Sequence record: OR352955.1
Length of the DNA stretch: 64,000 bases
Strand: one strand, 5' to 3'
DNA from: Escherichia phage AV125
Position 1 is the first letter of the stretch; each line of letters opens with the position of its first letter. The translations under genes were made by a program, and so were the position numbers. Below the pieces are notes generated by a model. That model did not search any database. It had not been told where the DNA came from and saw only the letters and a program-made list of their open reading frames with translations. Shown here one piece after another: positions 13,920-61,251 of the stretch.

Positions 13920-13958
13920 TTTGTAAAGTGAGGATACAGCAATGGTTTAGGAGTGGTT

Positions 13959-14630
13959 ATGAAAAAGTTTGTTGTTTACAGTCGTCTTTCTAAACAGAAA
14001 AAAGGTGAGGCACAATATGGTATGGAGAGCCAAGAGAACGATATCCGTTACTTCTTAGACTCTGTGCCTGATGCGGAAGTTATTGGTCAATTTTCTGAAT
14101 ACTATTCGGGTAAGGGCGATTGGAAGCAACGTAAGGAACTGGTTAAAGCGGTTGAAATGTGTAAAGCTACCGGAGCAACTTTATTGGTAGCTAAAGTTGA
14201 CCGCTTGGGTCGTAACAACGCCTCCGTAGCAACTCTTCTAGAAATGATCGATGTTAAGATAGCCATCATGCCAGACGCAGATAAAATGGTTATACAGCTT
14301 CTGTCTGTTCTGGCTGAACAAGAAGTTAGAGGTATTGCTGATCGTATTAAAAAGGGTCTTGCTGTAGCAAAAAGCAAAGGTGTTTTATTAGGCAGTGCTA
14401 ATCCTAAAACTGCCGCTGCACGTAGAAAAGGAAAAATGGAATACAACTCTGTTAAAGCAGACGCTTTTGCAGAGACATTCCGTGAACGTTTGGAGATCCT
14501 TAGAGATTTAAATACACCTTACAAAACTATTGCTGAAAAATTCAATAGTAAGAAAATAGCAACAGCACGTGGTGGTAAATGGGATGCTAAAACTGTTTCT
14601 CGTTTGTGTGCCAGACTGAACATTAAATAG
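13959..14630 (+). CDS. serine recombinase (resolvase/invertase family)
   Basis: YSRLSKQ near N-terminus (catalytic Ser region), VAKVDRLGRN (DRLxR motif), C-terminal HTH-like TIAEKFN...TVSRL; 223 aa. Confidence 0.6.
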   Translation: MKKFVVYSRLSKQKKGEAQYGMESQENDIRYFLDSVPDAEVIGQFSEYYSGKGDWKQRKELVKAVEMCKATGATLLVAKVDRLGRNNASVATLLEMIDVKIAIMPDADKMVIQLLSVLAEQEVRGIADRIKKGLAVAKSKGVLLGSANPKTAAARRKGKMEYNSVKADAFAETFRERLEILRDLNTPYKTIAEKFNSKKIATARGGKWDAKTVSRLCARLNIK

Positions 14631-24141: not shown

Positions 24142-24547
24142 TACCCCTCCATTCAAGACAAGCCATAACTTTACGCCAATCACTTTCTGTAAGAAAAATC
24201 TCGTTTGCTTTCTTCCACAAATCTAAATCGTGAAGGGTTGGAATACGATATGTTAGTTCACAGAATCTATGCTCTTCTTCTGTAATATAACCAAAATGCA
24301 GAGCCACATCGTGAAACCAACACCAACCATGCATCTCTCGAACAACATGGTCATGCTGAGACATTGTTTTATGCCGTAAACCTAACCAACAAGGAACAGA
24401 TATTTTAGTAGTCTTTAATCTGTGATCAACAGTATTAGAGTATTCAATAATAGCTGTCAGTTTCAATCGTGCTTTTTCTAAATCCTCATGGGTCACTTTG
24501 AAATAACTTTCTGAAAGATATCCACACATATTAATAACCTCCTTCAA
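24134..24547 (-). CDS. hypothetical protein
   Basis: 137-aa ORF, Cys/His/Trp-rich. Confidence 0.5.
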   Translation of the reverse strand: MKEVINMCGYLSESYFKVTHEDLEKARLKLTAIIEYSNTVDHRLKTTKISVPCWLGLRHKTMSQHDHVVREMHGWCWFHDVALHFGYITEEEHRFCELTYRIPTLHDLDLWKKANEIFLTESDWRKVMACLEWRGNE

Positions 24548-25472
24548 AAGGCTTAACTACATGTTGATTAGCTTTAAAACGTTCAACATAGTCATTTTCG
24601 CCCATGTTTTCATATAGCTTAGTAACAACATAAAAGTTTTCCCAAGCATATTCCCTAAACCAACCACTAGTGATGGATGTGCAGACTTTAGATAAAGCCA
24701 TTATAAAACTTTGCTTAGGGGTTGGACCTCCAATCTCTTCACCGAAAGGAATTTGTGAACGTTCCAAAGCCAAAACACACGCTTCTTCATAAACACCTAA
24801 CAGGCGCACATGTTTTGGTTGAGCAAAAAACTTTTCTTTGCTGGTCATAACTTCACTTCCATCTTTCATATAAGATTTATATGCTGGAGCATCCATTAAC
24901 GCGATTGCTTCATGGATAGAATCATGATCATAAACATACGGAACCTCGTCACCTTTAAAGAAGTCTTTACTTTTTACGTTTAAGTTCGGATGAGAGTAAG
25001 TGTATGTTTCTTTCTCACGCAACTCATAAATACTCTTAAGATTTTCTGGGATCTTTGCGCCCAGTGACCGCATGAAATGAATATCTTTCATAGTTTTAAA
25101 GAAATGAGGACTATCCTTTTTAAAACGATGACTCATTTTAAGAAGGTAGAGCACATCTAAAGGAGCAACAACATGTCCAGCGTAAGTTCGACGAACATCA
25201 TCAGAATCTTCACAATAACTAATCAAAGCTTCTGTGCTATCTCCTTGAGAAGCAATATCGTATTCCAAATGTGCACCAGTTATCATTTTGACATGGCCTT
25301 TGTTTCCTTTACGTTCTACAAGTTCAACAAACTCCTCTTGAGAGAACATTTTTGATAATTCTTCCCACTCTTGTTCTGTACACAGGTAATCTAAATCTAC
25401 ACAAGGGCGATACAAGTCTTTTCCCATGTCCATAGCATGAATTTGCAATGCACGGCTACCAATTAACACCAT
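24531..25472 (-). CDS. hypothetical protein, possible Pol-beta-superfamily nucleotidyltransferase
   Basis: 313 aa; N-terminal LIGSRALQIH...CVDLDYL resembles the GS...DxD nucleotidyltransferase signature but spacing is atypical. Confidence 0.5.
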   Translation of the reverse strand: MVLIGSRALQIHAMDMGKDLYRPCVDLDYLCTEQEWEELSKMFSQEEFVELVERKGNKGHVKMITGAHLEYDIASQGDSTEALISYCEDSDDVRRTYAGHVVAPLDVLYLLKMSHRFKKDSPHFFKTMKDIHFMRSLGAKIPENLKSIYELREKETYTYSHPNLNVKSKDFFKGDEVPYVYDHDSIHEAIALMDAPAYKSYMKDGSEVMTSKEKFFAQPKHVRLLGVYEEACVLALERSQIPFGEEIGGPTPKQSFIMALSKVCTSITSGWFREYAWENFYVVTKLYENMGENDYVERFKANQHVVKPFEGGY

Positions 25473-29272: not shown

Positions 29273-29863
29273 TCAAATTATTAACGAAACCGCATGACTA
29301 AATCTTGGTTCAGATATAACCTCTGCTACAGTCACATATGTATCGTGCAGCCAAAAAGATTCTACTCTACAAACACAAATACCGTTGATAATGAAATCTA
29401 CACAGGCTTTATTATTTTCGCACACTTGTTGACTATAAACAACCCCTAAAGAGTCATAAAGTGATCTCACTGTTGCTACCATTTCATCTGTTTCGTCTTC
29501 CTGTGAAACAAAGAAAACGAATACAGACAAGTTATTAGCGAAAGTATTGCTATTCTCTACTTCAACCGACTTACAAGGTAAAAAGGAGTAATATTTACCG
29601 TTAGGTATCAATTTCGCCTCAACCTGGTTAAGTATGCTTTGAGATGGTTTTGTTACATAAAAAAGATTTTCTGTTGGGTTTTCAACATTACTCCTTACTA
29701 TGCAACGAGTGGGGTTCGAAGGATCAAAAACATGATCGAAATCGACACACACAGGTAAGTTAACAACTTTAAACTTTTTGCTAAGAATGCTTACTGCTGT
29801 AAAAATCAAACCAGCATTTATTTTGCCAGTGAAAGTTGAACGCATAACTACTCCTCGGATCAT
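29273..29863 (-). CDS. hypothetical protein
   Basis: 196-aa ORF. Confidence 0.55.
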   Translation of the reverse strand: MIRGVVMRSTFTGKINAGLIFTAVSILSKKFKVVNLPVCVDFDHVFDPSNPTRCIVRSNVENPTENLFYVTKPSQSILNQVEAKLIPNGKYYSFLPCKSVEVENSNTFANNLSVFVFFVSQEDETDEMVATVRSLYDSLGVVYSQQVCENNKACVDFIINGICVCRVESFWLHDTYVTVAEVISEPRFSHAVSLII

Positions 29864-31503: not shown

Positions 31504-31519
31504 TGCCCCCGAAGGGGCA
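31504..31519 (-). repeat. intergenic UUCG-tetraloop hairpin
   Basis: GCCCC-CGAA-GGGGC. Confidence 0.5.
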
Positions 31520-32752: not shown

Positions 32753-33511
32753 TTAAATAAACACTTCAGTAATCAGTTTAGACAAACGTCCACGTTTATT
32801 ATCGTCCGTTGTCAGTTCAACGTATCCAATAAAATCTACAATTGGTTCACGAACACCTTCTTCATTTTCTGGATATAAAAGTTCCAAAATTTGATGCAGA
32901 CCATTGCTACGTTTTTTAATTGCATATGTCTGGCGAACATCGCCTAATACAATAACATGCGTATTAATACCTGCACGTTCAATAAGAAGTTTAAGTGTTT
33001 CTGTTGACATAAGTTGTGCTTCGTCAATAATGACGATTGTATTATCCAGGGTAGCCCCCAACAAATAGTTAGGAATATTCAATTCGATCTTACCTGATCC
33101 AATATCGTTTTCCAATTTGTTGGCTGTCATGAATTGCTGGAAAATACGTTTTGTAGATTCATAGTGTGCTGCTAGTTTATCTGTTTTATCCCCAGACAAG
33201 AAACCAATCTGGTCATCTCCGACTTCAGTAGGGTTCTTGATAAAAAGTAGTTTACGGAAGTCTCCTGAACGAAGCATCTGCAAAGCTTTCCATAAAGCAA
33301 CAGAGGTTTTACCAGTCCCTGCCGGAGCATTTACAACAGTCAGATCATTCCAGATCATGCTTTGAACAATCTTATTTTGGTCCCCTTCAGGCATAAATTC
33401 ATCTAAACGGTAATCGTCATTACCTACCGCTTTTGCTGCATAACGGCTTTCAATCTTTGCTGAATTAGCCAGTTTCTGCCGTTGTGTTTTAGCTGCGGTT
33501 TTATTTCCCAT
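32753..33511 (-). CDS. phoH: PhoH-like ATPase
   Basis: Walker A NAPAGTGKTSVAL; start moved to second ATG (33511) preceded by RBS AAAGGAG and an intergenic hairpin. Confidence 0.8.
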   Translation of the reverse strand: MGNKTAAKTQRQKLANSAKIESRYAAKAVGNDDYRLDEFMPEGDQNKIVQSMIWNDLTVVNAPAGTGKTSVALWKALQMLRSGDFRKLLFIKNPTEVGDDQIGFLSGDKTDKLAAHYESTKRIFQQFMTANKLENDIGSGKIELNIPNYLLGATLDNTIVIIDEAQLMSTETLKLLIERAGINTHVIVLGDVRQTYAIKKRSNGLHQILELLYPENEEGVREPIVDFIGYVELTTDDNKRGRLSKLITEVFI

Positions 33512-33530
33512 AGTAGCACTCCTTTTAGAA

Positions 33531-33544
33531 GGGGCCGAAGCCCC
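33531..33544 (-). repeat. intergenic UUCG-tetraloop hairpin
   Basis: GGGGCCGAAGCCCC between lysozyme stop and PhoH start. Confidence 0.6.
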
Positions 33545-33548
33545 TTTA

Positions 33549-34049
33549 TTAGTTGTAAGCATCTAAAGTTCCAGAAGTCAGAACTTTAATTACTCGTTCA
33601 GCACGGTTTGGCGTCTGGCTATACCATCGGCTTTTACGCATGTTTTTACCTGCTTGAGTATAATATGCATTGCTGATTAAAGTCAAGCTATTTTGAAACC
33701 CTTCAGCACCTTTTAACCCCAACTGGAAAACCATGTTGATTATTCCCAATTTACGAGTATCACTCACCTTATCATAGATTGGTGATAAGATAGCACTGTT
33801 TTTTATGTCTCTCTTCACTTTTGCAACATCGTCAGCAAAGATTTGACGGGCTTCTTTTTCTGTGATAACTCCATTAGTCTTACGACCAAGAAGATTATCT
33901 AAGATTTGAATAGCCTTTGCTTTATCTTTTATTTTAGTCAGAAGGTGTCCTATGCCGACTGTCCAATAACCAAGATGGTCTTGATAAACAGTAAGCTTCA
34001 GTCCTTCATCGACTCGTAGCATATCAAACTCATCTACTACTTTAGCCAT
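33549..34049 (-). CDS. e: T4-type lysozyme (endolysin, gene e family)
   Basis: FDMLRVDEGLKLTVYQDHLGYWTVGIGHLL and KSRWYSQTPNRAERVI align closely with T4 lysozyme (catalytic Glu/Asp/Thr positions present). Confidence 0.9.
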   Translation of the reverse strand: MAKVVDEFDMLRVDEGLKLTVYQDHLGYWTVGIGHLLTKIKDKAKAIQILDNLLGRKTNGVITEKEARQIFADDVAKVKRDIKNSAILSPIYDKVSDTRKLGIINMVFQLGLKGAEGFQNSLTLISNAYYTQAGKNMRKSRWYSQTPNRAERVIKVLTSGTLDAYN

Positions 34050-34211: not shown

Positions 34212-34472
34212 TTACTCCGCAATTTGAGCCATGAGATCACGCAGTTCGGTAAAACCGCCTACGTATGTTACCTCCCCGTTCACTTCAGACAAAATTTGTG
34301 GAAATGTGCGTGGAGGAACTCCGGTAAGATCAACAACTGTTTTAGTCATTGATTCTAAATCGTAGTCTTGGTCAAGACTTAAATATTCAAACTGTTTATT
34401 GCGCATGGTTAATAGTTGTTTTGACATTTCGCAAAATTGACAGTTAGGTTTACCAAAAATTACAAATTCCAT
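34212..34472 (-). CDS. glutaredoxin-like protein (NrdC/NrdH-like)
   Basis: 86 aa, CQFC redox motif near N-terminus, TFPQI...GG fold signature. Confidence 0.75.
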   Translation of the reverse strand: MEFVIFGKPNCQFCEMSKQLLTMRNKQFEYLSLDQDYDLESMTKTVVDLTGVPPRTFPQILSEVNGEVTYVGGFTELRDLMAQIAE

Positions 34473-35314
34473 TACCTCTCCTTATTAAGTAATACTGCTA
34501 AAGACCGTTCAATACCTTTATTTAAATCTGATTTTGTAAGATAGTGACTGGTTACTAGTTGTGACTTCACCGGACGTGCTGCTGGAGCATTATAGGTTGA
34601 AGCTGATACCGCCGATATCTTAACAGGTTCTGGCATCTGTGTCAAGATCTTTTCCGCAAACTCCGCCCAAGAAATAAGATGGCTTCCTGCAAAATGGTAA
34701 GTCTTTACAGATCTTGACCAACCTGTTTTTAATACTTCAAAAATAGCTTCTGCTAAATCTGGGGCATATGTTGGACAAGAGAACTGATCTGCAACGATAG
34801 TAAAATCACGTTGTCCATCATTATAGCGAGACAACATAGTTTTTAGAAAGTTATTTCCAAATTCACTATATACAGACGCTGTTCGAATAATATATGCGTT
34901 CGGGTTAACTCCTCGCACCATTTTTTCACCGAGTTCTTTCGTATACCCATAATTGTTTATCGGGTTAGGTGTAGTATCTTCAAAAATAGGATGAGAATAA
35001 TTAAAAATATAGTCTGTAGAAATATGCACAAAATCAATTTTAAGTTTGCTGCACACTGCCGCAATATTTGCAGGGCCATAGGCATTAACAGCCAAAGCAG
35101 TAGCAAAATCATGTTCTGCTTTATCTACAGCCGTATAAGCAGCGCAATTAATAACACCATCTACATAATCTTCAATAATAGCGTTTCGCACAGCTTCAAA
35201 ATTTGTAATATCTACACGTTCTTTAGGATAAATTAAAGACACATTTGAAGGAGCCACTTTACGTAAAGCTTGTCCCAGTTGTCCATTACCACCCAATACC
35301 AGATATGTTAGCAT
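34472..35314 (-). CDS. rmlD: dTDP-4-dehydrorhamnose reductase
   Basis: MLTYLVLGGNGQLGQAL Rossmann start, length 280 aa, position after rmlC. Confidence 0.8.
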   Translation of the reverse strand: MLTYLVLGGNGQLGQALRKVAPSNVSLIYPKERVDITNFEAVRNAIIEDYVDGVINCAAYTAVDKAEHDFATALAVNAYGPANIAAVCSKLKIDFVHISTDYIFNYSHPIFEDTTPNPINNYGYTKELGEKMVRGVNPNAYIIRTASVYSEFGNNFLKTMLSRYNDGQRDFTIVADQFSCPTYAPDLAEAIFEVLKTGWSRSVKTYHFAGSHLISWAEFAEKILTQMPEPVKISAVSASTYNAPAARPVKSQLVTSHYLTKSDLNKGIERSLAVLLNKER

Positions 35315-35874
35315 ACACCCTCGCTACGTAACTGTTGAAAAGACTTAGCCATTGCATCTTTTGTTGATAAGATAGGTTTAAAATCTTCGTCAAAAATCAT
35401 ATCGAAGCCCCAATCAATCCCTATATCAGGATCATCCCAACGTAAACTTTGTTCGCTGGAAGGGTCGTATGGAGTTGTGCATTTGTATTCGAAGATAGCA
35501 TCCATACTCAACACTATAAAACCATGTGCCAAACCAGGTGGAAGCCAGAACTGTGTATGGTGTCGTGCACGAAGAACAACACCGTCCCAAGCACCGTAAG
35601 TAGGACTATCTTTACGTAGGTCTACAGCGAAATCCAATACTTCCCCACTTACACAACGAACAAGCTTACCTTGCGGATTATTTGTTTGAAAGTGCATTCC
35701 TCGCAAAACACCGAAGTTTGATTTAGACATGTTATCTTGAACGAAAGTTTGTCTACCAATGATATCTTCATATTTTTGTTCATTATATGTTTCTAAAAAG
35801 AAACCACGGTCATCTTTATAAACGTCTGGTTTGATAATTACCGCACCTTCAATTTTTGTTTTTTCTACTTTCAT
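35308..35874 (-). CDS. rmlC: dTDP-4-dehydrorhamnose 3,5-epimerase
   Basis: Start at ATG 35874 (RBS GGAGGG); RGFFLETY, RGMHFQ cupin motifs; about 188 aa. Confidence 0.8.
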   Translation of the reverse strand: MKVEKTKIEGAVIIKPDVYKDDRGFFLETYNEQKYEDIIGRQTFVQDNMSKSNFGVLRGMHFQTNNPQGKLVRCVSGEVLDFAVDLRKDSPTYGAWDGVVLRARHHTQFWLPPGLAHGFIVLSMDAIFEYKCTTPYDPSSEQSLRWDDPDIGIDWGFDMIFDEDFKPILSTKDAMAKSFQQLRSEGVC

Positions 35875-35950
35875 TTTCCCTCCGCTAATTTGAGTAGGTA
35901 TTGCCCGTACTCTGTTTTCTTCAGTGAGTTTCCATGGTAGACCAAAGTCT

Positions 35951-36748
35951 CTAAAGAAATCCACCCTTTTTGAAAGCAATTTCTTCCAGGCACGCAATCT
36001 TCAATCCTTGACAGTTCTCAATAGTCTGCACGAATTGACCAGCTTCCATCAGACTGGCGTGTGTTCCTGTGTCAAGCCAAGTAAATCCTCGTCCGAGAAC
36101 TTCTACTTGTAACTTCCTGTCTTCGAGGTAGCTGCGATTGATATCGGTGATCTCCAGTTCTCCACGCGCGGAAGGGGTTACTTCTAATGCACGTTGAATA
36201 ACAGAGTTATCATAGAAATATAAACCTGTGACAGCATAATCTGATTTAGGATTTTCAGGTTTCTCTTCAATAGAAATAACTTGACGATTACTCCCAAATT
36301 CAACCACACCGAATCGTTCAGGATCTTTCACCAAACACCCGAAGATACAAGCTCCGCCCCAAACATCTACCATCTCACTAGCGTTAATCAGTAGTTTACC
36401 AAAGCTTTGTCCGAAGAATAGGTTGTCACCTAAAATAAGAGCAACAGAGTCTTCTCCGATAAAATCTTTACCGATGATGAAAGCGTCCGCAAGACCTCGT
36501 GGCTCGGATTGGATTGCGTAAGTGAGTTTTATCCCAAACATAGACCCATCTCCAAGAAGATGCTCAAAGTCTTCCTGATCGCCTGGTGTGGTGATGATTA
36601 AGATATCCTTAATGTCAGCCAACATCAATACCGATAAGGGGTAGTAGATCATGGGTTTGTCATACACAGGGAGCAATTGCTTGCTCACACTGCGTGTTAC
36701 CGGATGAAGGCGGGTTCCACTTCCTCCCGCCAAAATAATACCTTTCAT
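35951..36748 (-). CDS. rmlA: glucose-1-phosphate thymidylyltransferase
   Basis: [18 protein letters not shown]...[18 protein letters not shown] signature. Confidence 0.9.
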
Positions 36749-36756
36749 AACCCTCC

Positions 36757-37749
36757 TTAAATCTTCTTACTCCACCATTGAGGGTTGTTTAAGTACCATT
36801 CAATCGTTGAGTAGAGATCTTGTTCAAATGTAGAGTTTGCACTCCAACCCAGTTCAGACTCTATTTTAGAAGGATTGATTTCATAACGCAAGTCATGTCC
36901 TTTACGATCTTCAACAAAAGTTATCAAGTTGGAAGAAGGGTAGGTTCCTGCTTCTGGATGTACAGCATCCATGTAGTCACAAACCATATAGATGATCTCC
37001 ATATTGGTTTTGGGATTACGTGTTCCAACATTATACGTTTGACCTGGTTCTCCACCTGTTGCCACTTGAAGAATAGCTCGCGCATGATCCTCAACAAAAA
37101 GCCAGTCTCGCACCTGATCGCCTTTACCATACACCGGAATCTCTTTATTCGTCAAGATACTTGTGATGATTTTTGGGATCAGCTTTTCTGGATGTTGATA
37201 AGGTCCAAAGTTATTGGAGCAGTTGGTTATCACAACAGGTAAACCGTAGGTACGGTACCAAGCTTTCACAAGATGGTCAGATGCTGCCTTAGACGCACTG
37301 TACGGGCTTGAAGGGGCATAAGCTGTCTCTTCGGTAAAGGGAACGCCAGAGTCTGCCATATCGCCGTACACTTCGTCTGTGGAGACATGTACGAACATCT
37401 TAAGTTTATTTTTTGGGAGGAGCCTTGCAGCTTCCAATAAATTGTATGTACCAATAATATTGGAGTCGATGAAAACTCGTGGATTCTTGATAGAATTATC
37501 CACATGACTCTCTGCCGCTAAGTGAATGATGAAATCGGGATTGCACTCTACTACTAAACTTTTGACCTGGGTTTCGTTTGCCAAATCTGTTATGCTTAGT
37601 TTAACGTGAGTGATATCGCCTACATTCTCAATATCTGCTGCATAGCCCATCTTATCAACGACAAAAACTTCGTTATTGGGATCTTGACAAAGAGAGCGCA
37701 CCACGGCACTCCCAATAAAACCAAGACCACCTGTTACCAGATAGCGCAT
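36757..37749 (-). CDS. rmlB: dTDP-glucose 4,6-dehydratase
   Basis: [17 protein letters not shown] Rossmann, SDR catalytic YxxxK region, 330 aa. Confidence 0.9.
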
Positions 37750-39697: not shown

Positions 39698-39711
39698 GGG
39701 GCCGAAGCCCC
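39698..39711 (-). repeat. intergenic UUCG-tetraloop hairpin
   Basis: GGGGCCGAAGCCCC upstream of nrdB start. Confidence 0.6.
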
Positions 39712-39718
39712 TTTATAT

Positions 39719-40375
39719 TTAGCCTCGAAATACTGTTTTTGTTTCCGCCAGGTGCCAATAGAAATCCGCCTTGTTTACAAGAGTGTTGTACACCTCTGGA
39801 TAAAAATGTTCTTCCTCTTTGTAACGATCCGCTGTTTCCCTGATTGACTTAGCTTTATCCTTTAGCCAAGCGAAGTGTGCCTCTTCCTCTGTAGCGAAGT
39901 AGCCTAAATGTTTACCTTTACTCCCAGAAGCTTTGGCATAAATCTTACCATCTTTCCTAACATGTGCTCCTAGTAAGTATTTTCTTTCATACCTCTTAGC
40001 ATAACTTAAGAGTGTATTTATGTAAGGAGGAACAAACCTACAATATTCAGGACAATAAACAGTATTTCCTTCAAGAACAAGATCTTTATCTAAAACAAAG
40101 CCTTCAACATTGTGTTCTTGATACCAGTTATCAAAGTTTGAAAAGGTGAACCAAGCATCACACACAGTAACATCTTTATAACCTGGTCTAATGTTTTCCA
40201 TACGATATGCACGATTAAACATGCCTTTCCAAGCTGCATAGGAAGGGTCTATGAATGTATTAACCCTTTTCCCATTGATAACACCACCTTCCCACAATCT
40301 ACGTTCAACATCCACAATCAAGGGGATTTCTCCCCTCTCTGTGAGAACGGTAACTTTACGTTTACCCTTCTTCAT
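39719..40375 (-). CDS. free-standing homing endonuclease-like protein with AP2 domain, inserted between nrdA and nrdB
   Basis: KGKHLGYFATEEEAHFAWL is an AP2-type DNA-binding signature typical of phage homing endonucleases; placement mirrors T4 mobE. Confidence 0.6.
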   Translation of the reverse strand: MKKGKRKVTVLTERGEIPLIVDVERRLWEGGVINGKRVNTFIDPSYAAWKGMFNRAYRMENIRPGYKDVTVCDAWFTFSNFDNWYQEHNVEGFVLDKDLVLEGNTVYCPEYCRFVPPYINTLLSYAKRYERKYLLGAHVRKDGKIYAKASGSKGKHLGYFATEEEAHFAWLKDKAKSIRETADRYKEEEHFYPEVYNTLVNKADFYWHLAETKTVFRG

Positions 40376-40386
40376 CTGTTCTCCTA

Positions 40387-42630
40387 CTACATTTTACAGG
40401 CACTACACCCTTCGTCTTCAGAATCTTCTTGTGCTAAAGAATCTGCTGATTTTGTTCTACTATTAAGGTAATACAATGATTTGCCACCCAGTCTAGCAAA
40501 ATTCAGAATAAACTGCATCTCAGCTTTCACGGATAAACGTCCACCTACCAATTTAGAATAATCTAGCCAAGAATCACAAGAAATTCCTTGGTCAGTAAAC
40601 TTGGTAAAGATACCATACATTTCTGCAAGGTCTTTAGCCGGAGTATCCCAGGCAGATTGGTAGAACATTTTCAGTTTTTCGTAGTCTGGAACAATAAATA
40701 ATACACTACCTTTCTGACTTTGTTTATACATAATGGTATCACGAACAGGATACAGAGAGTTAGTAGTATTGCTTACCAAACTGCTGGACTCATTAGGTGC
40801 AATAGCAGCCAATACACTGTTACGGATACCACCTTGTTCAATGATTTCAGCACGTAAGCCTTCCCAGTCCATTTTAAGATCAAAATTACCGATACTATCT
40901 ACTGTTTTAGCATAGGTGTCAATTGGTAGCCAACCTTGAGGCCATTTGGTCTTATCGATCCATTCTGCATTACCTTTTTCCTTAGCCAGACGCAGAGAGG
41001 CTTTTGCCAACCAAAAGTAATGACGTTCTGCAAGTTCATGCATTAATTTTTTAGCATAAGCATCTGAATAATTTACAAAATTACTTGCCAAATAATGCGC
41101 TAAGTTTGTAATACCTACACCAATAGATCTACGTGCTTTAGCAGTTATTTCGTTATGTTTAAATGGATAATCCATTGTTTCAATAACGTTGTCAATTGTC
41201 AATACAGTGTAGTATGCAACATCCTCATATTCTTCAGGTAAGACACGACCAGCGACAATAGAAGATAAGAAGCATAAAGCCAATTCTTGATCTTCTGTAT
41301 TCTCACCAGTAAAGAGATCCGGCATATTGTGGAAAGCTTTAGTTGGTAAGAAGATCTCTTGACACAGGTTTGATTGATACACCGTATCCAGGAAAGGTGT
41401 ATGGTTGTTAACGTTGTCAGCAAAGAACATGTAAATACGTCCTGTTTCTGCACGTTGAACAATAATCTCTGTCAGAAGATCACGAGCCTTAACAAATTTT
41501 TTCTTAATGCGACGACGACTTACTTTGTCATAAACTGCATCAAACTCTTCTTCACTTTTATATAAAGCTTCATAAAGTTCAGGAGCATCATCACAACTAA
41601 CTAACATCCAGTCTTCGTTTTTTGCTGCTCGACGCAAGAACGAACGGTTAACAACAATAGAATAATCTAGTTTATCCACTCGTTTATCTATAGGTGTTGT
41701 TGGATTCTTCAGTCGAATCAGATCGTCGAAGTCTGGTTCAAGTATGGTAAAGGTAACTGTAGCACTACCTCCACGGCTTGCTTGCTTTGAAGCTCCAACA
41801 CTATCTTCCATCCATTTCAGATACGGAAGAAGACCACCGTGAATAATACGATTATTCTTAACACCTTGACCTGTGGCACGAGTTTGAAGATTAACACCAA
41901 TACCTGCGTTATTCAACGTATACTCATGAGCTAAGTAATTAGCAATGGCTAAAGACTCTGCCGTATCGTCTGCACGGAATAAACAACAAGACGCACTTCC
42001 TTTGATTGGAGTTCGTAGAGTTGTCAGATACGGCGATGGCAGATTAATCTTAAGATCGCTAACATAAGTATAAAGTTTTTTAATATCTTCTATACGGCGT
42101 TCTTTTGGTTGGATCTCCATAACCTTCATTGCGATACCAATGAAAAGAAACTGTGGAGACTCATGCACCACATCGTTTACTGCATCTCGAATAAGATATT
42201 TATCTACCATCTGACGTAAAACAGAATAACCATAAGTTAGATTTTTATTATGCTTTACAATCTTACCGATTTCTTTGATCTCTTCATCGGTATAATCCAT
42301 TTTAGCCCAATGTCCACGTTCTACCATATCATGATAAAAGGTATTCAGTGAAGGGATACTGTGGTATCCCCCATGAGCCTGTTTGTAAATCATACCCAGA
42401 AGAAGTCTTCCTGCCATATCACTGTAAGCTTGTGTTTTCTTGTCAATACACGCTGCAATCATTGCTTTATGCAGATCACGTGTAGACACACCGTCATAAC
42501 ACCGCTTCACAGCTTCTAATTCAATTTCAGACCAGTTTAGTTTACCTGCTGCAAATTCAGACCACTTACGAAGTTTTTCTGGATTAAACTCCTCTGTCTT
42601 ACCATTAGATTTAGTTACAAAACGAATCAA
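40387..42630 (-). CDS. nrdA: ribonucleotide reductase class Ia large subunit
   Basis: 747 aa, N-terminal ATP-cone (VTKSNGKTEEFNPEKL), conserved catalytic Cys-containing core. Confidence 0.9.
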   Translation of the reverse strand: MIRFVTKSNGKTEEFNPEKLRKWSEFAAGKLNWSEIELEAVKRCYDGVSTRDLHKAMIAACIDKKTQAYSDMAGRLLLGMIYKQAHGGYHSIPSLNTFYHDMVERGHWAKMDYTDEEIKEIGKIVKHNKNLTYGYSVLRQMVDKYLIRDAVNDVVHESPQFLFIGIAMKVMEIQPKERRIEDIKKLYTYVSDLKINLPSPYLTTLRTPIKGSASCCLFRADDTAESLAIANYLAHEYTLNNAGIGVNLQTRATGQGVKNNRIIHGGLLPYLKWMEDSVGASKQASRGGSATVTFTILEPDFDDLIRLKNPTTPIDKRVDKLDYSIVVNRSFLRRAAKNEDWMLVSCDDAPELYEALYKSEEEFDAVYDKVSRRRIKKKFVKARDLLTEIIVQRAETGRIYMFFADNVNNHTPFLDTVYQSNLCQEIFLPTKAFHNMPDLFTGENTEDQELALCFLSSIVAGRVLPEEYEDVAYYTVLTIDNVIETMDYPFKHNEITAKARRSIGVGITNLAHYLASNFVNYSDAYAKKLMHELAERHYFWLAKASLRLAKEKGNAEWIDKTKWPQGWLPIDTYAKTVDSIGNFDLKMDWEGLRAEIIEQGGIRNSVLAAIAPNESSSLVSNTTNSLYPVRDTIMYKQSQKGSVLFIVPDYEKLKMFYQSAWDTPAKDLAEMYGIFTKFTDQGISCDSWLDYSKLVGGRLSVKAEMQFILNFARLGGKSLYYLNSRTKSADSLAQEDSEDEGCSACKM

Positions 42631-43406: not shown

Positions 43407-44405
43407 TCACCATTTAGTATGATTTGTTAAAAGTTGACGATGTTGAATCCAGCCTTTGAAATTGCCAGACCAAAACTTACCATTACGATCTACATGGGTA
43501 ATACCTGGTTCCCAAGAGTTAAAATCCCAAGGAGCATTGATAAACAAATCTTCAAAACAGTTCTCTCCATATTGTTCGCATGTTTCTTGCATTGGAGTGG
43601 CTTGATGTTCAAACGGAGAAGCATGAACCTTGCGCCCAGTCAGCAAACGACCATAGATATCTAAAGCTTTATCTTTAGTTGCATTCAAACGACGATAGCT
43701 AACCTGTGCACAACACGAAGCTGAAATAGCTTTGGCTTCTTCCAAAGTAAGCACAACAACTTCTCCAGATTCATCTTGAACATAGTATCCACCAAAAACA
43801 AAATGATCGTCACCTTCTGTGCCAATATTATCATAGAAATGGTCTACATAAGGTGTGTGCCATTGCCCTGATTTCAGCACTTCTGGTGTAGATTCTTCAT
43901 ACTCTTTGTGCATCTCTTTAGCCAAAGCTTCGATAGTAGGATCGGCTTCTTTGTCATCACGTAGCCACCAGAAATTTTCATATTCTGTTGCTGTCAGAAC
44001 TGTTTTAATTCGTTGGAAAGGTTCCAGAAGACGGTTTGCAACTTGTTTGTGGTACCCTGCCAAAGAGAATTCTTCTGCAAAACGTGCTGCACTAAGCGCG
44101 GCAAGATCCCACCACTCTTGAGCAGTATAACCTGCATCAATAAGAGCGTCATGATCAACACCTTTATCCTGCATACCAGGTTGGTTAGCCCCAAAACGAT
44201 AAGGACGAGCAGGTTGATTTCGCACCATTTCAATCAGTGTTTTAACAGGTATAGCACGGCTAGAAGCAGCATTACGACTGAACAGGCGGTGAGTCATCAA
44301 TTCTGAATGAATAATACGTGGATATTCTAGTTCAAAAGTTACAATCTCTTTTCCGTCTTCAGTGATGGAATGCGCAATAATACTAGCCGAAATCTGTTTT
44401 GTCAT
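43407..44405 (-). CDS. ThyX-like flavin-dependent thymidylate synthase
   Basis: ELMTHRLFSRNAASSRA resembles ThyX RHR-x7-S signature (first Arg replaced by Thr); 332 aa. Confidence 0.55.
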   Translation of the reverse strand: MTKQISASIIAHSITEDGKEIVTFELEYPRIIHSELMTHRLFSRNAASSRAIPVKTLIEMVRNQPARPYRFGANQPGMQDKGVDHDALIDAGYTAQEWWDLAALSAARFAEEFSLAGYHKQVANRLLEPFQRIKTVLTATEYENFWWLRDDKEADPTIEALAKEMHKEYEESTPEVLKSGQWHTPYVDHFYDNIGTEGDDHFVFGGYYVQDESGEVVVLTLEEAKAISASCCAQVSYRRLNATKDKALDIYGRLLTGRKVHASPFEHQATPMQETCEQYGENCFEDLFINAPWDFNSWEPGITHVDRNGKFWSGNFKGWIQHRQLLTNHTKW

Positions 44406-44414: not shown

Positions 44415-45023
44415 TTAGTTTTTAAAATTGTTCAAAGTGTTAAAAACATCCAAACATGTTAGCCACTGATCTTCTAAACCTGTGATCACAACATTTGGTT
44501 TTTTCTTTAGTTCTTCTAGATGGTTATCTTTATAAGGCGTATTAAAATATATTTTAACCACTTCATCTGGAAAATATAGTAGGTTATCAGCCCTGTCATC
44601 TATTGCTATATCACAAGGCAATAAGTATTTTTCTTTCGTAGCAAAAAAGCCGTTACCAGATCCTTTGCTAAAATCAATCGTATCTAACGTTCTTAAAACA
44701 TGCTTATGTTTAGAACTTAAGTGACCACCTTTTGTCACACTTGCGATCAAAAGATTGCTACCTTTCCTTGAAACATACTTTAAGAAATCTGGCATACCTG
44801 GAACAAAACCCATTGTATCATAGAGATGAGGATTATCCAGAAATCCGTAAGGATCTATATTGAACTCCTCCCTGAAACCAGGAAAGTAGTTGGTAAGATC
44901 ATAGTCTGCATTTTTTGTGAATGTGTCTATCTTAACACCAAGTCCACTAATCTTATTCAACCATTCTAACCAAGCAACATCTAATGGAGCCACAACTAAA
45001 TCCCAATCACATACTATCTGCAT
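44415..45023 (-). CDS. HAD-superfamily 5'(3')-deoxyribonucleotidase-like phosphatase
   Basis: IVCDWDLVV (DxDxV motif I), SKHK, IAIDDRADN (DD motif IV). Confidence 0.55.
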   Translation of the reverse strand: MQIVCDWDLVVAPLDVAWLEWLNKISGLGVKIDTFTKNADYDLTNYFPGFREEFNIDPYGFLDNPHLYDTMGFVPGMPDFLKYVSRKGSNLLIASVTKGGHLSSKHKHVLRTLDTIDFSKGSGNGFFATKEKYLLPCDIAIDDRADNLLYFPDEVVKIYFNTPYKDNHLEELKKKPNVVITGLEDQWLTCLDVFNTLNNFKN

Positions 45024-48876: not shown

Positions 48877-49755
48877 TTATTTAAGGATTGTTGCTTTGGT
48901 TAAATCTTCCATCAGACCTCGAATCTCATTGAAGCACAGAAGGACTGAAGCTTCAATACTGCCTTCTTCGTCTGCAAAATATTTCGGAAAACGTAGTTTA
49001 GAAAGTTTAAACTCTTTATCCACTACAAAATCTACAACACCATCATATTCAAGACCGATTGCAACCACATCTTTACCATCTTCTTTTAGTTCGACAGCTT
49101 TAGACTCGTATAGAGATTCTTTACTCCAAACAACAACACCCTCGCTATCCTCCATTTTGATATAATTTCCGAGAGTAATACGATCTGCTTCGTGATTCTC
49201 CAGCAATTCACCAAAACCTTTTACAATAGCTTCTTCGTGCACACTAAAACCTACCGAAGGGAAAGTCCCCAGAACGGAACGGAGGAAAGAAGTAATCTCT
49301 TCTGCAACCTTTTTACTTCCATTAAGAACATAAAGAAGATTCGTAGTTTTATCCAAGACAACATAATTAAAGAAATCTTCAGGTTCTGTTTCAGGCAATA
49401 GTGCAAATTCAATATCTTCCTTCATTGCTTTGACTACTTCTTTATCGACATAAAACTCTTTACCTTCGCTCTCCATGTCCTGACGCATTTCTTCTAGACG
49501 TTCATTCAAAATACGTTTAACTTTCTTTTTATCTACCTTTTTCACAGATTGACCTACATTAAGCAGTTCAAGATCTGAAAACTCTTTTACAAATTTAGAG
49601 TCATCTTCGAAACGAACAAGACCGATAGTGTGTGACTGGGAGCCTTCTGCTGTTACAAATTCCAGAGGAATATCTGTAATGCTGTTAATGGATGCTACAG
49701 AAGCATTGTCACCAACAACCATAGGCAGAGCGGATTTAAAAGATTTTACAAACAT
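48877..49755 (-). CDS. hypothetical protein
   Basis: 292-aa acidic ORF. Confidence 0.55.
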   Translation of the reverse strand: MFVKSFKSALPMVVGDNASVASINSITDIPLEFVTAEGSQSHTIGLVRFEDDSKFVKEFSDLELLNVGQSVKKVDKKKVKRILNERLEEMRQDMESEGKEFYVDKEVVKAMKEDIEFALLPETEPEDFFNYVVLDKTTNLLYVLNGSKKVAEEITSFLRSVLGTFPSVGFSVHEEAIVKGFGELLENHEADRITLGNYIKMEDSEGVVVWSKESLYESKAVELKEDGKDVVAIGLEYDGVVDFVVDKEFKLSKLRFPKYFADEEGSIEASVLLCFNEIRGLMEDLTKATILK

Positions 49756-49767: not shown

Positions 49768-50406
49768 TTAAAAACGGGTATTTAAAAAATAGTTAGACAT
49801 ACCTAACTCTAATGCTTCGAGATTGTAAGCTTCAGCCGCTTCCAACTCTGTAGTATATCTTCCTAAATATTTTGTTTTCTTATCGAAACAAATAAAAGCC
49901 AGCCATTTATTTTTAGCTTTGTCATAGGAGACTCCCCTAAAATTTGAATACTTGCTTTTTGTTTTACCTCTGTTTCGAATCTGTTCACTTTGTGTTGTCC
50001 ATCTGCAATTCTCTTTACTGTAACCAAGATCAACATTTACACGATCTAAACTATGGTTTTTAGGTCGCTTACCCATGTCTTTCAAGAAAGTGTTAAATGA
50101 TTTCTTCCAATCATCACAAACAGTAATTCCTCGTCCACCGTATCTATCATAGTGCTCACAATTTTCATTATAACACCTTTGTAGCATATTACGATAACTT
50201 TCGTAAGTATATCGTTCCTTATTAGATAGGCCATCGCCCTTACTACAATACATGCATTTCGGACTCTTTGATCTTTTCAGACTGGACAATGTTCTTAAAC
50301 TTTCTTTTTGGCATACCAAGCATAAACATACAAAAGTAGTTTGATTGTCAATCTTGGTTTCAGAAAGACGGGAGATTCTAAAATCTCCCTTTGTTGAACC
50401 TATCAT
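49768..50406 (-). CDS. HNH homing endonuclease with AP2 domain
   Basis: SLDRVNVDLGYSKENCRWTTQSEQIRNR (HNH), FRGVSYDKAKNKWLAFI...KYLGRYTTELEAAEAYN (AP2). Confidence 0.75.
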   Translation of the reverse strand: MIGSTKGDFRISRLSETKIDNQTTFVCLCLVCQKESLRTLSSLKRSKSPKCMYCSKGDGLSNKERYTYESYRNMLQRCYNENCEHYDRYGGRGITVCDDWKKSFNTFLKDMGKRPKNHSLDRVNVDLGYSKENCRWTTQSEQIRNRGKTKSKYSNFRGVSYDKAKNKWLAFICFDKKTKYLGRYTTELEAAEAYNLEALELGMSNYFLNTRF

Positions 50407-51128
50407 TTTTTGATAATAGCTGCAATGTTGGGTTTAATGAAACCTGACCACTTCATGATCTTGCCTTTATCATCAAAGAACACATACACTTTCTGTTTTT
50501 CATTATAAACAGCATGAACACCAGTGTATGCTCCTTCTGGACGATTGGCATTTCGTTCTTCAATTGCAGTGCATTCTTGTGCAATGGCTGAATCGATATC
50601 TGAAGTTTTCCAAGTTTTCAGCAACTGTTGTTTAGTTGGATACTTGGAATCATTACTTTTCAATACCTCTTTAATAACTTTCTTTTCTGGATATTTTGAA
50701 CGGATTAGAGTGTCACGAGACATACGCATAATACCAGCAGCCATTAGTGCCATTTGAACTGGCTCTGTAAATGTTTGTTCCAAAGCATCAAAATCAGTAT
50801 ACACAGTTGGAGTAAAAACATCGCCTACAGCATAGTCCAAGAAATTCATCGTATGTTCTTCACCAAAGAACATGTAGGTCAGATAACTGGATACTACAAA
50901 AATATCCGCTGCTGCATCCAAGAGTTCTACATGATCGTTTACTTTCGCGGCTGTTTCATACTCTTTAAGCTCTTCACGAACGAATCCGATTTGGGACATA
51001 AATAGCTCTTGAGTGAATTCAGGTTGTTCACCACCTCGTGCTTTAGCATTCCAATCAATCACGTGCTTCGCTGCATTTTTGAAAAATTCAGTATCGAACT
51101 TAATATCTTTAAAAAAATTCTCGATCAT
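50403..51128 (-). CDS. MazG-like all-alpha nucleoside triphosphate pyrophosphohydrolase (dCTPase/dUTPase-like)
   Basis: REELKEYETAAKVNDHVELLDAAADIFVV acidic EExxE...D helix pair. Confidence 0.5.
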   Translation of the reverse strand: MIENFFKDIKFDTEFFKNAAKHVIDWNAKARGGEQPEFTQELFMSQIGFVREELKEYETAAKVNDHVELLDAAADIFVVSSYLTYMFFGEEHTMNFLDYAVGDVFTPTVYTDFDALEQTFTEPVQMALMAAGIMRMSRDTLIRSKYPEKKVIKEVLKSNDSKYPTKQQLLKTWKTSDIDSAIAQECTAIEERNANRPEGAYTGVHAVYNEKQKVYVFFDDKGKIMKWSGFIKPNIAAIIKK

Positions 51129-59894: not shown

Positions 59895-59966
59895 GGCCCT
59901 GTAGCTCAATGGGAGAGCTGTCGGCTCATAACCGATAGGTAGCTGGATCGAAACCAGCCAGGGCCA
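59895..59966 (+). tRNA. tRNA-Met (anticodon CAT; could also be Ile2 or initiator)
   Basis: Cloverleaf folded by hand: acceptor GGCCCTG/CAGGGCC, anticodon loop CTCATAA, T-loop ATCGAAA; CCA encoded. Confidence 0.8.
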
Positions 59967-59971
59967 CCAAA

Positions 59972-60043
59972 GTCTTTATGGTGTAATGGATAGCACAGGA
60001 GTCTTCTAAACTCTTAGTCAAGGTTCGATTCCTTGTAAAGACA
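59972..60043 (+). tRNA. tRNA-Arg (anticodon TCT)
   Basis: Acceptor GTCTTTA/TAAAGAC, anticodon loop CTTCTAA, T-arm CAAGG-TTCGATT-CCTTG; CCA encoded. Confidence 0.8.
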
Positions 60044-60242
60044 CCAGAACATTTTAACATGAATTAGCTCAAGTGATTTGAACCCACTACTGATCATGGT
60101 GGCAGAGAATGAGGCAAGTATGTCAGACATTATAAACAAAGGCCACGGTTATATTAGAAGACATAAATGCTCGAAGAGCACCGTTCGTGGAGAACGGGGG
60201 TTGGTGGAGTCACCATTCATGGTAAAATGTTTTAAAAAACTA

Positions 60243-60271
60243 TTGACAACAAACATTATTTTATGTTAGAT
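60243..60271 (+). promoter_or_regulatory. sigma70-like promoter within tRNA cluster
   Basis: TTGACA 60243-60248, 17-bp spacer, TTAGAT; 10 nt before tRNA-Ser. Confidence 0.55.
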
Positions 60272-60280
60272 TATAAGTAT

Positions 60281-60368
60281 GGAAGGGCAAATCGATGTGG
60301 CGACGAAAACGGTCTTGAAAACCGCCGAGCTTGAAAGAGCCTTGGGAGTTCGACTCTCCCTCCTTCCG
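60281..60368 (+). tRNA. tRNA-Ser (anticodon TGA), class II
   Basis: Acceptor GGAAGGG/TCCTTCC, anticodon loop CTTGAAA, long variable arm, T-arm GGGAG-TTCGACT-CTCCC; CCA encoded. Confidence 0.8.
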
Positions 60369-60376
60369 CCAGATTA

Positions 60377-60459
60377 GGTAGATTGGTGAAATGGTAGCCA
60401 CGACAGTTTGCTAAACTGTAGTCGGAAACGGCGTGTAGGTTCGAGTCCTACATCTACCG
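60377..60459 (+). tRNA. tRNA-Ser (anticodon GCT), class II
   Basis: Acceptor GGTAGAT/ATCTACC, anticodon stem ACAGT/ACTGT, loop TTGCTAA, variable arm with GAAA loop; CCA encoded. Confidence 0.8.
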
Positions 60460-60461
60460 CC

Positions 60462-60592
60462 AAGTTCTTTTTAATGTAGCTTACTTTAGCAGAGTAAATC
60501 TTCGGCAAGTGGCGGTAACCACTTTACCGATACCTCATAGTTAGTGGTGTGAACACTGGCTATTTTAAAAAGAATTTAAATATTAGTATTTA
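60462..60592 (+). ncRNA. candidate small RNA between tRNAs
   Basis: 131-nt spacer with no tRNA fold and no ORF; internal GTGG...CCAC complementarity; T4 carries small stable RNAs at the equivalent place. Confidence 0.3.
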
Positions 60593-60677
60593 GGTGAGTT
60601 AATTCCGTAGGGGTAGCGGGGCAGACTGTAAATCTGTTATCATTGCGATTCGGGTGGTTCGACTCCATCACTCACCA
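60593..60677 (+). tRNA. tRNA-Tyr (anticodon GTA), class II
   Basis: Closely parallels E. coli tRNA-Tyr: GCAGACTGTAAATCTG anticodon arm, long variable arm, acceptor GGTGAGT/ACTCACC; CCA encoded. Confidence 0.8.
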
Positions 60678-60686
60678 CCAAATTAA

Positions 60687-60769
60687 GATGAGTTGGCTGA
60701 ATGGTTTAAGCGGCGGACTGTTAATCCGTGTTCGAAAGAACAATATAGGTTCGAATCCTATACTCATCG
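60687..60769 (+). tRNA. class II-type tRNA with GTT (Asn) anticodon by loop geometry
   Basis: Perfect 7-bp acceptor GATGAGT/ACTCATC, T-arm ATAGG-TTCGAAT-CCTAT, 3-bp D-stem, 15-nt variable arm (GTTC-GAAA-GAAC), anticodon loop CTGTTAA closed by GCGGA/TCCGT. Confidence 0.5.
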
Positions 60770-60779
60770 CCAGAATTAT

Positions 60780-60856
60780 GGACTTGTAGAGTTAAGGTAA
60801 ACCCCCAGTCGCCAATAGGCTTCTGGAATTGCAGGTATCGAATCCTGCCGAGTCCC
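60780..60856 (+). pseudogene. tRNA-like element with aberrant anticodon arm
   Basis: 7-bp acceptor GGACTTG/CGAGTCC and T-arm GCAGG...TCGAAT...CCTGC present, but no canonical 5-bp/7-nt anticodon stem-loop and no CCA. Confidence 0.3.
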
Positions 60857-60862
60857 AGCATT

Positions 60863-60934
60863 GCTCCTATAGTATAATGGCTATTACAACGGTTTTGTAA
60901 TCCGTGGATCTCTGTTCGATTCAGTGTGGGAGCA
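60863..60934 (+). tRNA. tRNA-Thr (anticodon TGT)
   Basis: Acceptor GCTCCTA/TGGGAGC, anticodon loop TTTGTAA with a 4-bp stem, T-loop TTCGATT; CCA encoded. Confidence 0.65.
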
Positions 60935-60937
60935 CCA

Positions 60938-61200
60938 ACACAACATTAAGAGCACTGTGATTGATCGTCGTATCCTGTGCACAAGGTCTGCTCGAAAGAC
61001 AGTGTTCTTAGTATTGTGTTGATCACAAAAAGAGTCACCCGAAACTTGACCGGAGTAGGGTTGGATGGGGCAAAATGAGAAGCGGCTCTCCCATCGACAG
61101 CAACGAAGAATAATATTTGACTTTGGTTTTGTATTATTTTAAGTTAGCTTACCGAACGTAGGGCTAGTCACCCAACGGGATACTCGTCACTGTCCCAATC
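60938..61200 (+). ncRNA. candidate structured RNA or spacer within tRNA cluster
   Basis: About 260 nt without ORF or tRNA fold; CACTGTG ... ACAGTG and other inverted repeats. Confidence 0.25.
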
Positions 61201-61210
61201 AATAAAAGTC

Positions 61211-61240
61211 TTGACAACAAATAGTAAAATGTAGTATAGT
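61211..61240 (+). promoter_or_regulatory. sigma70-like promoter within tRNA cluster
   Basis: TTGACA 61211-61216, 18-bp spacer, TATAGT; 11 nt before tRNA-Gly. Confidence 0.55.
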
Positions 61241-61251
61241 AAATATATATG

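Follow-up and report, generated by a model that had tools for sequence, protein, structure and literature searches.

The dTDP-L-rhamnose operon of Escherichia phage AV125 carries a frameshifted rmlA and may feed a distant cluster of glycosyltransferases

What does a lytic phage do with genes for making an activated deoxy-sugar? The question is raised by a stretch of 64,000 nucleotides from Escherichia phage AV125 (sequence record OR352955.1; this whole stretch is called the window below), in whose listing of open reading frames (ORFs) four consecutive, tightly packed minus-strand genes occupy positions 34472-37749. An original prediction had read these genes, from the letters alone, as rmlB, rmlA, rmlC and rmlD, a complete pathway to dTDP-L-rhamnose. 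We assigned the enzymes by the curated equivalog cut-offs of NCBIfam and used Pfam as a second profile library. Each of the four proteins scored above its equivalog cut-off (Table 1), Pfam concurred with all four assignments (for RmlD with PF04321, 249 bits), and so did the matches to solved structures; in the profile check for different short-chain dehydrogenase/reductase, cupin or nucleotidyltransferase enzymes, the rhamnose-pathway models were passed instead. The best solved structures were Salmonella RmlB 1g1a for RmlB (374 bits; also 1bxk), 4ho0 for RmlA (387 bits; also 1h5r and 1mc3), Salmonella RmlC 1dzr for RmlC, and 3sc6 and 1vl0 for RmlD (also 1kbz). RmlD scores 106 bits against the Salmonella enzyme and is nearer to those of Bacillus (155 bits) and Clostridium (152 bits). 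The genuine RmlC structures 1dzr and 1ep0 gave 192-193 bits, and NovW, PCZA361.16 and a putative 3-epimerase of the D-allose pathway gave 90-107 bits, well below them; judged by these scores, RmlC is a cupin-fold 3,5-epimerase and not a mono-epimerase. Catalytic and cofactor motifs are kept in all four proteins: an NAD-binding glycine motif, the T-D-E triad and YSASK in RmlB (the last being the YxxxK of short-chain dehydrogenases), GGSGTR in RmlA (the G-G-x-G-T-R signature), RGMHFQ and KLVR in RmlC (with the conserved histidine of RGxHxQ and the lysine of KLVR), and GGNGQLG, STDY and YGYTK in RmlD. On this sequence evidence the four enzymes very probably make dTDP-L-rhamnose: RmlA would join glucose-1-phosphate and dTTP into dTDP-glucose, RmlB would dehydrate the latter to dTDP-4-keto-6-deoxy-D-glucose, RmlC would epimerise this at C3 and C5, and RmlD would reduce C4 to give dTDP-L-rhamnose. 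We propose that the operon is a working, phage-owned supply line for this nucleotide sugar.

The word 'complete' needs one qualification. All four genes are present and their motifs are intact, but rmlA is truncated to 265 amino acids by a one-base deletion in a run of adenines, A5 in place of the A6 of relatives (Table 1). The alignment with Schickermooser (Escherichia phage vB_EcoM_Schickermooser), a close relative, has a single gap at 35967-35971, and in the remainder of rmlA, readable in the -1 frame only, every base agrees with the intact gene of Schickermooser (100% identity). With one A inserted, RmlA regains its 292 amino acids, and its stop overlaps the rmlC start codon as ATGA. The 47 close full-length matches (at least 90% identical) have 202 nucleotides for the 201 of the query, and none of them is 100% identical; A5 is private to this window, these 47 having A6 and an intact 292-amino-acid rmlA. 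Over a 13.5-kb block of 99.3% identity to Schickermooser the A5 gap has no companion, and among conserved ORFs of at least 80 amino acids it is the sole isolated frame-breaking indel; several one-base homopolymer differences occur elsewhere too, in intergenic DNA. Either a sequencing artefact or a very recent mutation may account for it. If the deletion is real, the 265-amino-acid protein may keep activity: a naturally short RmlA has been solved (3hl3, with which the alignment stops near query residue 242). The junction, C AAA AAG G, is near the dnaX slippery heptamer, and a -1 shift there gives the full protein. A programmed -1 ribosomal frameshift was nevertheless ruled out as a designed feature of rmlA, because the relatives, with A6 in all 47 close full-length matches, are simply in frame. 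That occasional slippage may yield some full-length RmlA is speculation.

Does the operon belong to the phage? The rml segment is 99.9% identical in nucleotides to Schickermooser and 97.7% to phAPEC8 over 4.2 kb, which marks the range (97.7-99.9%) within Phapecoctavirus, and collinear blocks with Schickermooser (88.8-99.3% identity) span nearly the whole window. A cluster of ten tRNA genes at 59895-61906 on the plus strand (Met, Arg, Ser, Asn, Thr, Gly, Gln, Pro, Ile, Met), which coincides with a local rise in GC content, is identical as a set to the Schickermooser annotation. By these comparisons the window is Phapecoctavirus DNA of the subfamily Stephanstirmvirinae (the phAPEC8/phi92 group). 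The idea of a lytic phage genome is supported, and the label 'T4-like' is to be replaced, the best matches being Phapecoctavirus genomes. An origin as host DNA, a recent acquisition from the host or an assembly artefact, with no role for the phage, could be suspected from the slightly higher GC content over rmlA and rmlB (0.42-0.43, against about 0.38 around them). Its probability is vanishingly small: a search of 5,426 complete E. coli genomes with the segment gave at best a match of 63.8% identity that covers 45% of the query, no E. coli genome exceeds 64% identity, the rml genes are under strong purifying selection (see below), and in about 130 records, from two phage genera, the operon keeps its place and its gene order. 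In phi92, which belongs to the other genus, the order B-A-C-D and the neighbours are the same at 55-71% protein identity. The bacterial rfb/rml operons (rfbB-D-A-C in E. coli and Salmonella) and rffG/rffH encode the same four enzyme families with the same chemistry, and the best matches of RmlA, RmlB and RmlC include solved enzymes of Salmonella and E. coli; the phage operon differs from them in its gene order, in a DNA identity of at most about 64%, and in having no adjacent genes for an O-antigen transferase, flippase or polymerase. Recent transfer from the host was ruled out by this comparison.

The rml operon of this phage group is already known. About 130 records of related phages, those of phAPEC8, phi92, ESCO13 and Schickermooser among them, annotate the genes by name; annotation goes back to the first genomes of the group, and discussion in print to 2020. 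What had been called unusual cargo is a conserved, long-annotated hallmark of the subfamily (PMC7552041, PMC8594841, PMC10844046), and among the Stephanstirmvirinae operons compared (phAPEC8, phi92, ESCO13, Schickermooser) that of AV125 is the same operon, and it alone has the A6-to-A5 deletion. In the form of the original prediction the finding adds nothing new: public records name the genes, and at least three papers spell out the puzzle. What can be carried forward is the rmlA frameshift, the distinction between an rmlC/rmlD core and rmlA/rmlB accessories, and four named glycosyltransferase genes from which a search for the acceptor of the sugar can start.

The distinction between core and accessory genes emerges from selection and from loss across relatives. 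Since synonymous sites are saturated between genera, the between-genus ratio of nonsynonymous to synonymous substitutions (dN/dS) was dropped, and within-genus pairs (phAPEC8 and UP17) were compared by the proportions of nonsynonymous and synonymous differences (pN/pS). For all four rml genes together pN/pS was 0.066 against phAPEC8 and 0.10 against UP17, with the values for single genes in Table 1; by this sequence measure the operon is under strong purifying selection, and its conserved order in phi92, at saturated synonymous sites, shows it to be old. Among records with at least 95% protein identity, RmlC, RmlD and two glycosyltransferases, gp232 and gp233 (introduced below), were found in 64 each and RmlA in 46, so that rmlA is missing from about 28% of close relatives (ESCO37 and, by count, about 17 other records); the corresponding numbers of Escherichia phage records are 105 for RmlC, 106 for RmlD, 106 for gp233, 105 for gp232 and 88 for RmlA. 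The genes rmlC and rmlD are always retained and are the most constrained, and the pattern of loss ranks the genes as pN/pS does. ESCO37, reported to be without the first two rml genes (PMC10269720), has lost rmlB and rmlA by a clean excision, so that its rmlC adjoins the next ORF; rmlC, rmlD and gp232 are retained there. In four other related phages, phiWec179, phiWec186, phiWec188 and phiWec190 (LC739533-LC739539), the operon is mosaic: the 3' end of rmlA has about 92% DNA identity to the window and RmlC and RmlD only about 65% protein identity, which suggests that the rmlC-rmlD half was swapped for a different allele.

How could a phage dispense with the first two steps? DNA resembling rmlA/rmlB is present in 5,423 of the 5,426 E. 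coli genomes, at a median of one locus per genome, which we infer to be rffG/rffH of the common-antigen pathway. The 4-keto intermediate is common to the rhamnose and the common-antigen pathways. We propose that RmlC and RmlD are the indispensable contribution of the phage, that host rffH/rffG would supply the 4-keto intermediate, and that RmlA and RmlB would only boost flux, which would account for their loss in some relatives; with RmlA as a mere booster, the frameshift in AV125, if real, should be tolerated. The same observations admit a reading in which no glycosyltransferase takes part: RmlC and RmlD would drain dTDP-4-keto-6-deoxyglucose from the host and so starve synthesis of dTDP-Fuc4NAc and of the common antigen, the phage's own receptor. 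The sharing of the intermediate by both pathways and the universal retention and constraint of rmlC and rmlD alone fit such a diversion, as does the report that the common antigen is a receptor of this phage group (PMC8594841). We nevertheless consider it very unlikely, as rmlA and rmlB are still present, and under purifying selection, in phi92 and in about 72% of close relatives, and their enzymes would raise the supply of the intermediate; the equal record counts of rmlC, rmlD and the glycosyltransferases (64 each) would also be left unexplained.

If dTDP-rhamnose is made, an enzyme should spend it. The observation that no glycosyltransferase was recognisable by eye in the window agrees with our scans of window ORFs against Pfam and PHROGs, which found none among the three candidates proposed originally and twenty further ORFs of about 140 amino acids or more, the small ORFs being only partly covered. 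All three candidates turned out to be something else: 24531-25472 (minus strand) encodes a 313-amino-acid DUF7277 and DUF7275 protein (254 bits) that is conserved in PHROG 2141, 29273-29863 belongs to phrog_4806, a PHROG labelled histidyl-tRNA-synthetase-like, and 48877-49755 encodes RdgC. In Schickermooser, by contrast with the window, four tandem glycosyltransferase genes, gp235 to gp232, lie at 103701-106845 of the record, about 70 kb from rml and between a primase/helicase gene and an endolysin gene, and this position is kept in relatives that are only 53-57% identical. The products gp232 and gp233 are small GT-A-type enzymes, the latter with an invariant DDD motif and a structural model (pLDDT 87) whose best fold match is A197 of STIV, an archaeal-virus glycosyltransferase; gp234 and gp235 are GT4-like GT-B paralogs, 41% identical to each other. 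None of the four has a membrane-spanning segment (highest 19-residue hydropathy 1.65), and the Schickermooser annotation has no flippase or polymerase gene beside them. An NCBIfam search with the four glycosyltransferases and a sequence search of the PDB with gp233 gave nothing useful. We propose that these soluble enzymes would consume the dTDP-rhamnose, and consider the cluster moderately probable as the consumer. Directly beside the cluster (Schickermooser record 108169-117405) stand conserved genes of tellurite-resistance type (TerD, vWA-TerF-like, TelA, TerC) with a PRTase and a HAD hydrolase.

Which molecule would receive the rhamnose? Olsen et al. 2020, who noted the 'complete dTDP-rhamnose pathway' and called its location in a DNA-metabolism region 'peculiar', proposed rhamnosylation of hydroxymethylated nucleotides in DNA (PMC7552041), that is, transfer to a modified base such as a hydroxymethylated pyrimidine, as glucose is transferred in T4. 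The rml genes do lie among nucleotide-metabolism genes, the cluster does lie beside genes for primase/helicase and DNA polymerase, and the window encodes a divergent ThyX-like protein, a MazG-like pyrophosphohydrolase and an NT5C-like nucleotidase. There are also weak matches of gp233 to PF20691, the TET-associated glycosyltransferase family (TAGT; 19.2 bits against a cut-off of 27.5, E 1.3e-3), and to phrog_842, the T4-type beta-glucosyl-hydroxymethylcytosine alpha-glucosyltransferase (E 5e-6, over about 40 residues around the DxD motif), and arabinosylated hydroxymethylcytosine, reported for phage RB69, offers a precedent (PMC6024577). However, Maffei et al. 2021 (PMC8594841) described phi92-like relatives, in which both the operon and the cluster occur, as 'exceptionally susceptible' to restriction-modification systems 'despite … a putative dTDP glycosylation machinery', a point that PMC10844046 repeats along with the rhamnosylation proposal. 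No ThyA-type hydroxymethylase, TET/JBP dioxygenase or member of a similar family was found in the scanned window ORFs (the small ones in part) or in the annotation of the closest relative, several phage DNA methyltransferases are annotated, which suggests ordinary bases, and fold searches with the models of gp233 and gp235 gave no T4 alpha- or beta-glucosyltransferase among the matches listed. The likeness to T4-type sugar modification of DNA (glucosyl-hydroxymethylcytosine, or the arabinosyl form in RB69) is that of a lytic phage with annotated glycosyltransferases; it stops at the hydroxymethylase, for which these scans and that annotation gave no match, and at the high restriction sensitivity of the phi92-like relatives. 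Glycosylation of DNA, among the uses first proposed for this locus, is on these grounds disfavoured as a global modification, and we rate it a most doubtful explanation. Of the three nucleotide-metabolism proteins, the ThyX-like one (332 amino acids, 43407-44405, minus strand) covers no more of the ThyX (Thy1) profile than its C-terminal part (E 1.6e-8) and is adjoined by the gene for the NT5C-like deoxynucleotidase (44415-45023, minus strand, E 9e-6); the MazG-like pyrophosphohydrolase is encoded at 50403-51128 (minus strand).

Other fold matches may point towards the host surface. Among those of gp233 are TarP, a wall-teichoic-acid transferase that a prophage encodes, and RmlT, a Listeria rhamnosyltransferase, in complex with TDP-rhamnose; those of gp235 include PglA, PimA and WaaG, which have lipid-linked acceptors. 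Such matches would suit a remodelling of the host envelope, in which rhamnose units added to precursors of lipopolysaccharide, enterobacterial common antigen or capsule would mask receptors and so exclude superinfection or keep progeny off debris; that the phages bind surface glycans, namely the common antigen and the outer core of lipopolysaccharide (PMC8594841, PMC12753057), makes this plausible. Its probability is lowered by the four enzymes having no membrane-spanning segment and no accompanying flippase or polymerase gene, and by the occurrence of the cassette in Serratia phages and partly in Cellulophaga phages, whose envelopes differ; in the Serratia prophage, moreover, it lies in the late region beside head genes, which is not a typical site for lysogenic conversion. 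We consider envelope remodelling unlikely.

The distribution of the cassette in other phages bears, by context, on the acceptor. A prophage of Serratia sp. M24T3 carries a gp232-gp233-GT-B module in the same order (41%, 37% and 39% identity), located between lysis genes and HNH/terminase/capsid genes. In Cellulophaga phage phi12:1 the gp232 homolog is the C-terminal half of a 407-amino-acid glycosyltransferase, the gene for which lies within the head module and adjoins that for a Methyltransf_24 protein. From these comparisons the cassette appears to be mobile and common to Serratia prophages and, in part, to Cellulophaga phages. Over its whole length gp233 is also homologous to the GT2 domain of gp104 of mycobacteriophage Wee (pairwise E 4e-14), and tblastn with gp233 gave matches in 324 mycobacteriophages. 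The right-arm slot of Wee gp104 is that of Che8 gp108, a GT2/Methyltransf_24 fusion, and Che8 virions are reported to be glycosylated (PMC11256854, citing Freeman 2023). Orthology of gp233 to the Che8 virion-glycosylation enzymes was rejected, the pairwise tests against gp108-gp110 being negative and the actual partner being Wee gp104; the mycobacteriophage link is therefore one of enzyme class and synteny only.

We propose that the acceptor is not the bases of phage DNA globally and that it would most probably be a virion protein, which would then carry a rhamnose-containing surface glycan; this reading agrees best with the location of cassette homologs beside head genes in two unrelated phages and with the matches to viral GT-A enzymes. 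The whole chain, of supply line, cluster and an acceptor other than DNA (virion protein or another molecule), is possible but falls somewhat short of probable, and the choice of a virion protein, which is drawn from sequence comparison, is more tentative again. Several points weigh against the proposal. RmlD passes its cut-off by only 15 bits and the stereochemistry of its product is not readable from sequence, so that a related 4-reductase making 6-deoxy-L-talose is formally conceivable. The fold matches are generic, to GT-A and GT4 enzymes whose acceptors range over proteins, lipids, teichoic acids and small molecules. The cluster lies outside the window, its presence in AV125 being presumed from gp232 and gp233 in 64 close-relative records each, and its co-occurrence with rmlC and rmlD is one of matching record counts, not of a per-genome matrix. 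In Stephanstirmvirinae it adjoins genes for primase/helicase and DNA polymerase and not structural genes. The Cellulophaga phages with a gp232 homolog gave no RmlC match, so the enzyme need not be rhamnose-specific, and gp232, gp233 and gp235 show no significant similarity to Che8 gp108, gp109 and gp110. Finally, the literature search gave no enzyme activity, sugar analysis or glycoprotein data for this phage group and no experiment naming the acceptor of the sugar; PMC13390438, bioRxiv 2025.12.19.695335, PMC6563267 and PMC12548472 had nothing that bears on it.

As shown in Table 1, the rml genes are followed by those for glutaredoxin, lysozyme and PhoH, as the original prediction had it. The spacer between rmlB and rmlA is 8 nucleotides, rmlC and rmlD overlap by 7, and the rmlD stop and glutaredoxin start have one base in common; for rmlC, whose mechanical ORF extends to a TTG at 35997, the ATG start at 35874 was used. 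Two terminator-like hairpins are the probable upstream and downstream boundaries of the unit that contains the rml genes, and between them (39711-39698 and 31519-31504) no strong intergenic minus-strand terminator was found; the rml genes therefore appear, from the sequence, to be part of one unit of about 8 kb, in the order nrdB, four small ORFs, rmlB-A-C-D, glutaredoxin, a small ORF, lysozyme, PhoH, one ORF and an HslV-like gene.

Table 1. Features of the rml locus in the window, with profile scores and selection measures of the rml genes
Feature	Position	Strand	NCBIfam model, score and cut-off (bits)	pN/pS vs phAPEC8; vs UP17	Remarks
rmlB, dTDP-glucose 4,6-dehydratase	36757..37749	-	TIGR01181, 429.9; 365.1	0.11; 0.24	330 aa
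rmlA, glucose-1-phosphate thymidylyltransferase	35951..36748	-	TIGR01207, 428.2; 360.65	0.10; 0.14	truncated ORF, 265 aa, ends AFKKGGFL*; covers profile positions 1-258 of 286
A5 homopolymer	35967..35971	-			T5 on plus strand; relatives carry A6; one-base deletion, shifts rmlA frame
rmlA remainder	35871..35966	-			readable in -1 frame only; usual RmlA C-terminus
rmlC, dTDP-4-dehydrorhamnose 3,5-epimerase	35308..35874	-	TIGR01221, 225.4; 155.75	0.012; 0.015	188 aa, ATG start
rmlD, dTDP-4-dehydrorhamnose reductase	34472..35314	-	TIGR01214, 238.8; 224.05	0.066; 0.054	280 aa; narrow pass of cut-off
Glutaredoxin gene	34212..34472	-			annotated glutaredoxin in Schickermooser, phAPEC8, phi92
Lysozyme gene	33549-34049	-			in unit with rml genes, after glutaredoxin
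PhoH gene	32753-33562	-			in unit with rml genes, after lysozyme
Terminator-like hairpin upstream of nrdB	39698..39711	-			GGGGCTTCGGCCCC, then T-run; terminator annotated at same place in Schickermooser; probable upstream boundary
Terminator-like hairpin after HslV-like gene	31504..31519	-			TGCCCCTTCGGGGGCA, then TTTCTT; probable downstream boundary

Away from the rml genes, the comparison with Schickermooser brought out three further features of the window. Between nrdB and nrdA lies an insertion (39713-40417) that is absent from Schickermooser, where the flanking blocks join directly; its 218-amino-acid ORF (39719-40375, minus strand) has no Pfam match and is probably a homing endonuclease, phi92 having an annotated HNH endonuclease at the same nrdB/nrdA site. 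A second window-specific insertion (49772-50406) holds a 212-amino-acid ORF (49768-50406, minus strand), flanked by the RdgC-like and MazG-like genes; its AP2 DNA-binding domain (E 5e-7, slightly short of the Pfam cut-off) is of a kind typical of phage homing endonucleases. An intact ORF of 225 amino acids at 13953-14630 on the plus strand encodes a serine-recombinase (resolvase) N-terminal domain (E 5e-18) in this strictly lytic phage; its Schickermooser counterpart has many small deletions and is annotated only as a 128-amino-acid fragment.

The nearest parallels for a phage that decorates its own particle come from other hosts. Giant viruses use sugar synthesis and glycosyltransferases of their own to decorate the particle, as in the UDP-L-rhamnose synthesis of Mimivirus and the capsid glycans of chloroviruses; their hosts are eukaryotic, the pathway is UDP- and not dTDP-linked and the enzymes are unrelated, which makes this an analogy of logic only. 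Another parallel is the Cluster F mycobacteriophage Che8, likewise a tailed phage with a multi-glycosyltransferase cassette away from its structural genes, and one with reported virion glycosylation (PMC11256854); unlike the phages considered here, Che8 and Wee have no gene for nucleotide-sugar synthesis annotated in the right-arm regions examined. In its most specific form, our proposal is that Phapecoctaviruses and phi92-like phages coat virion proteins with a rhamnose-containing glycan by means of the cluster, fed by RmlC and RmlD with RmlA and RmlB as boosters, which we consider somewhat unlikely. If true, this virion would be the first to bear a glycan among phages of Gram-negative hosts that have a nucleotide-sugar pathway of their own. 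The phages of this group have among the broadest host ranges of coliphages and are used in therapy cocktails: particles that bear a glycan would differ in adsorption and in their recognition by antibodies, and a change of the host envelope, if that were the use of the sugar, would affect superinfection and the design of cocktails.

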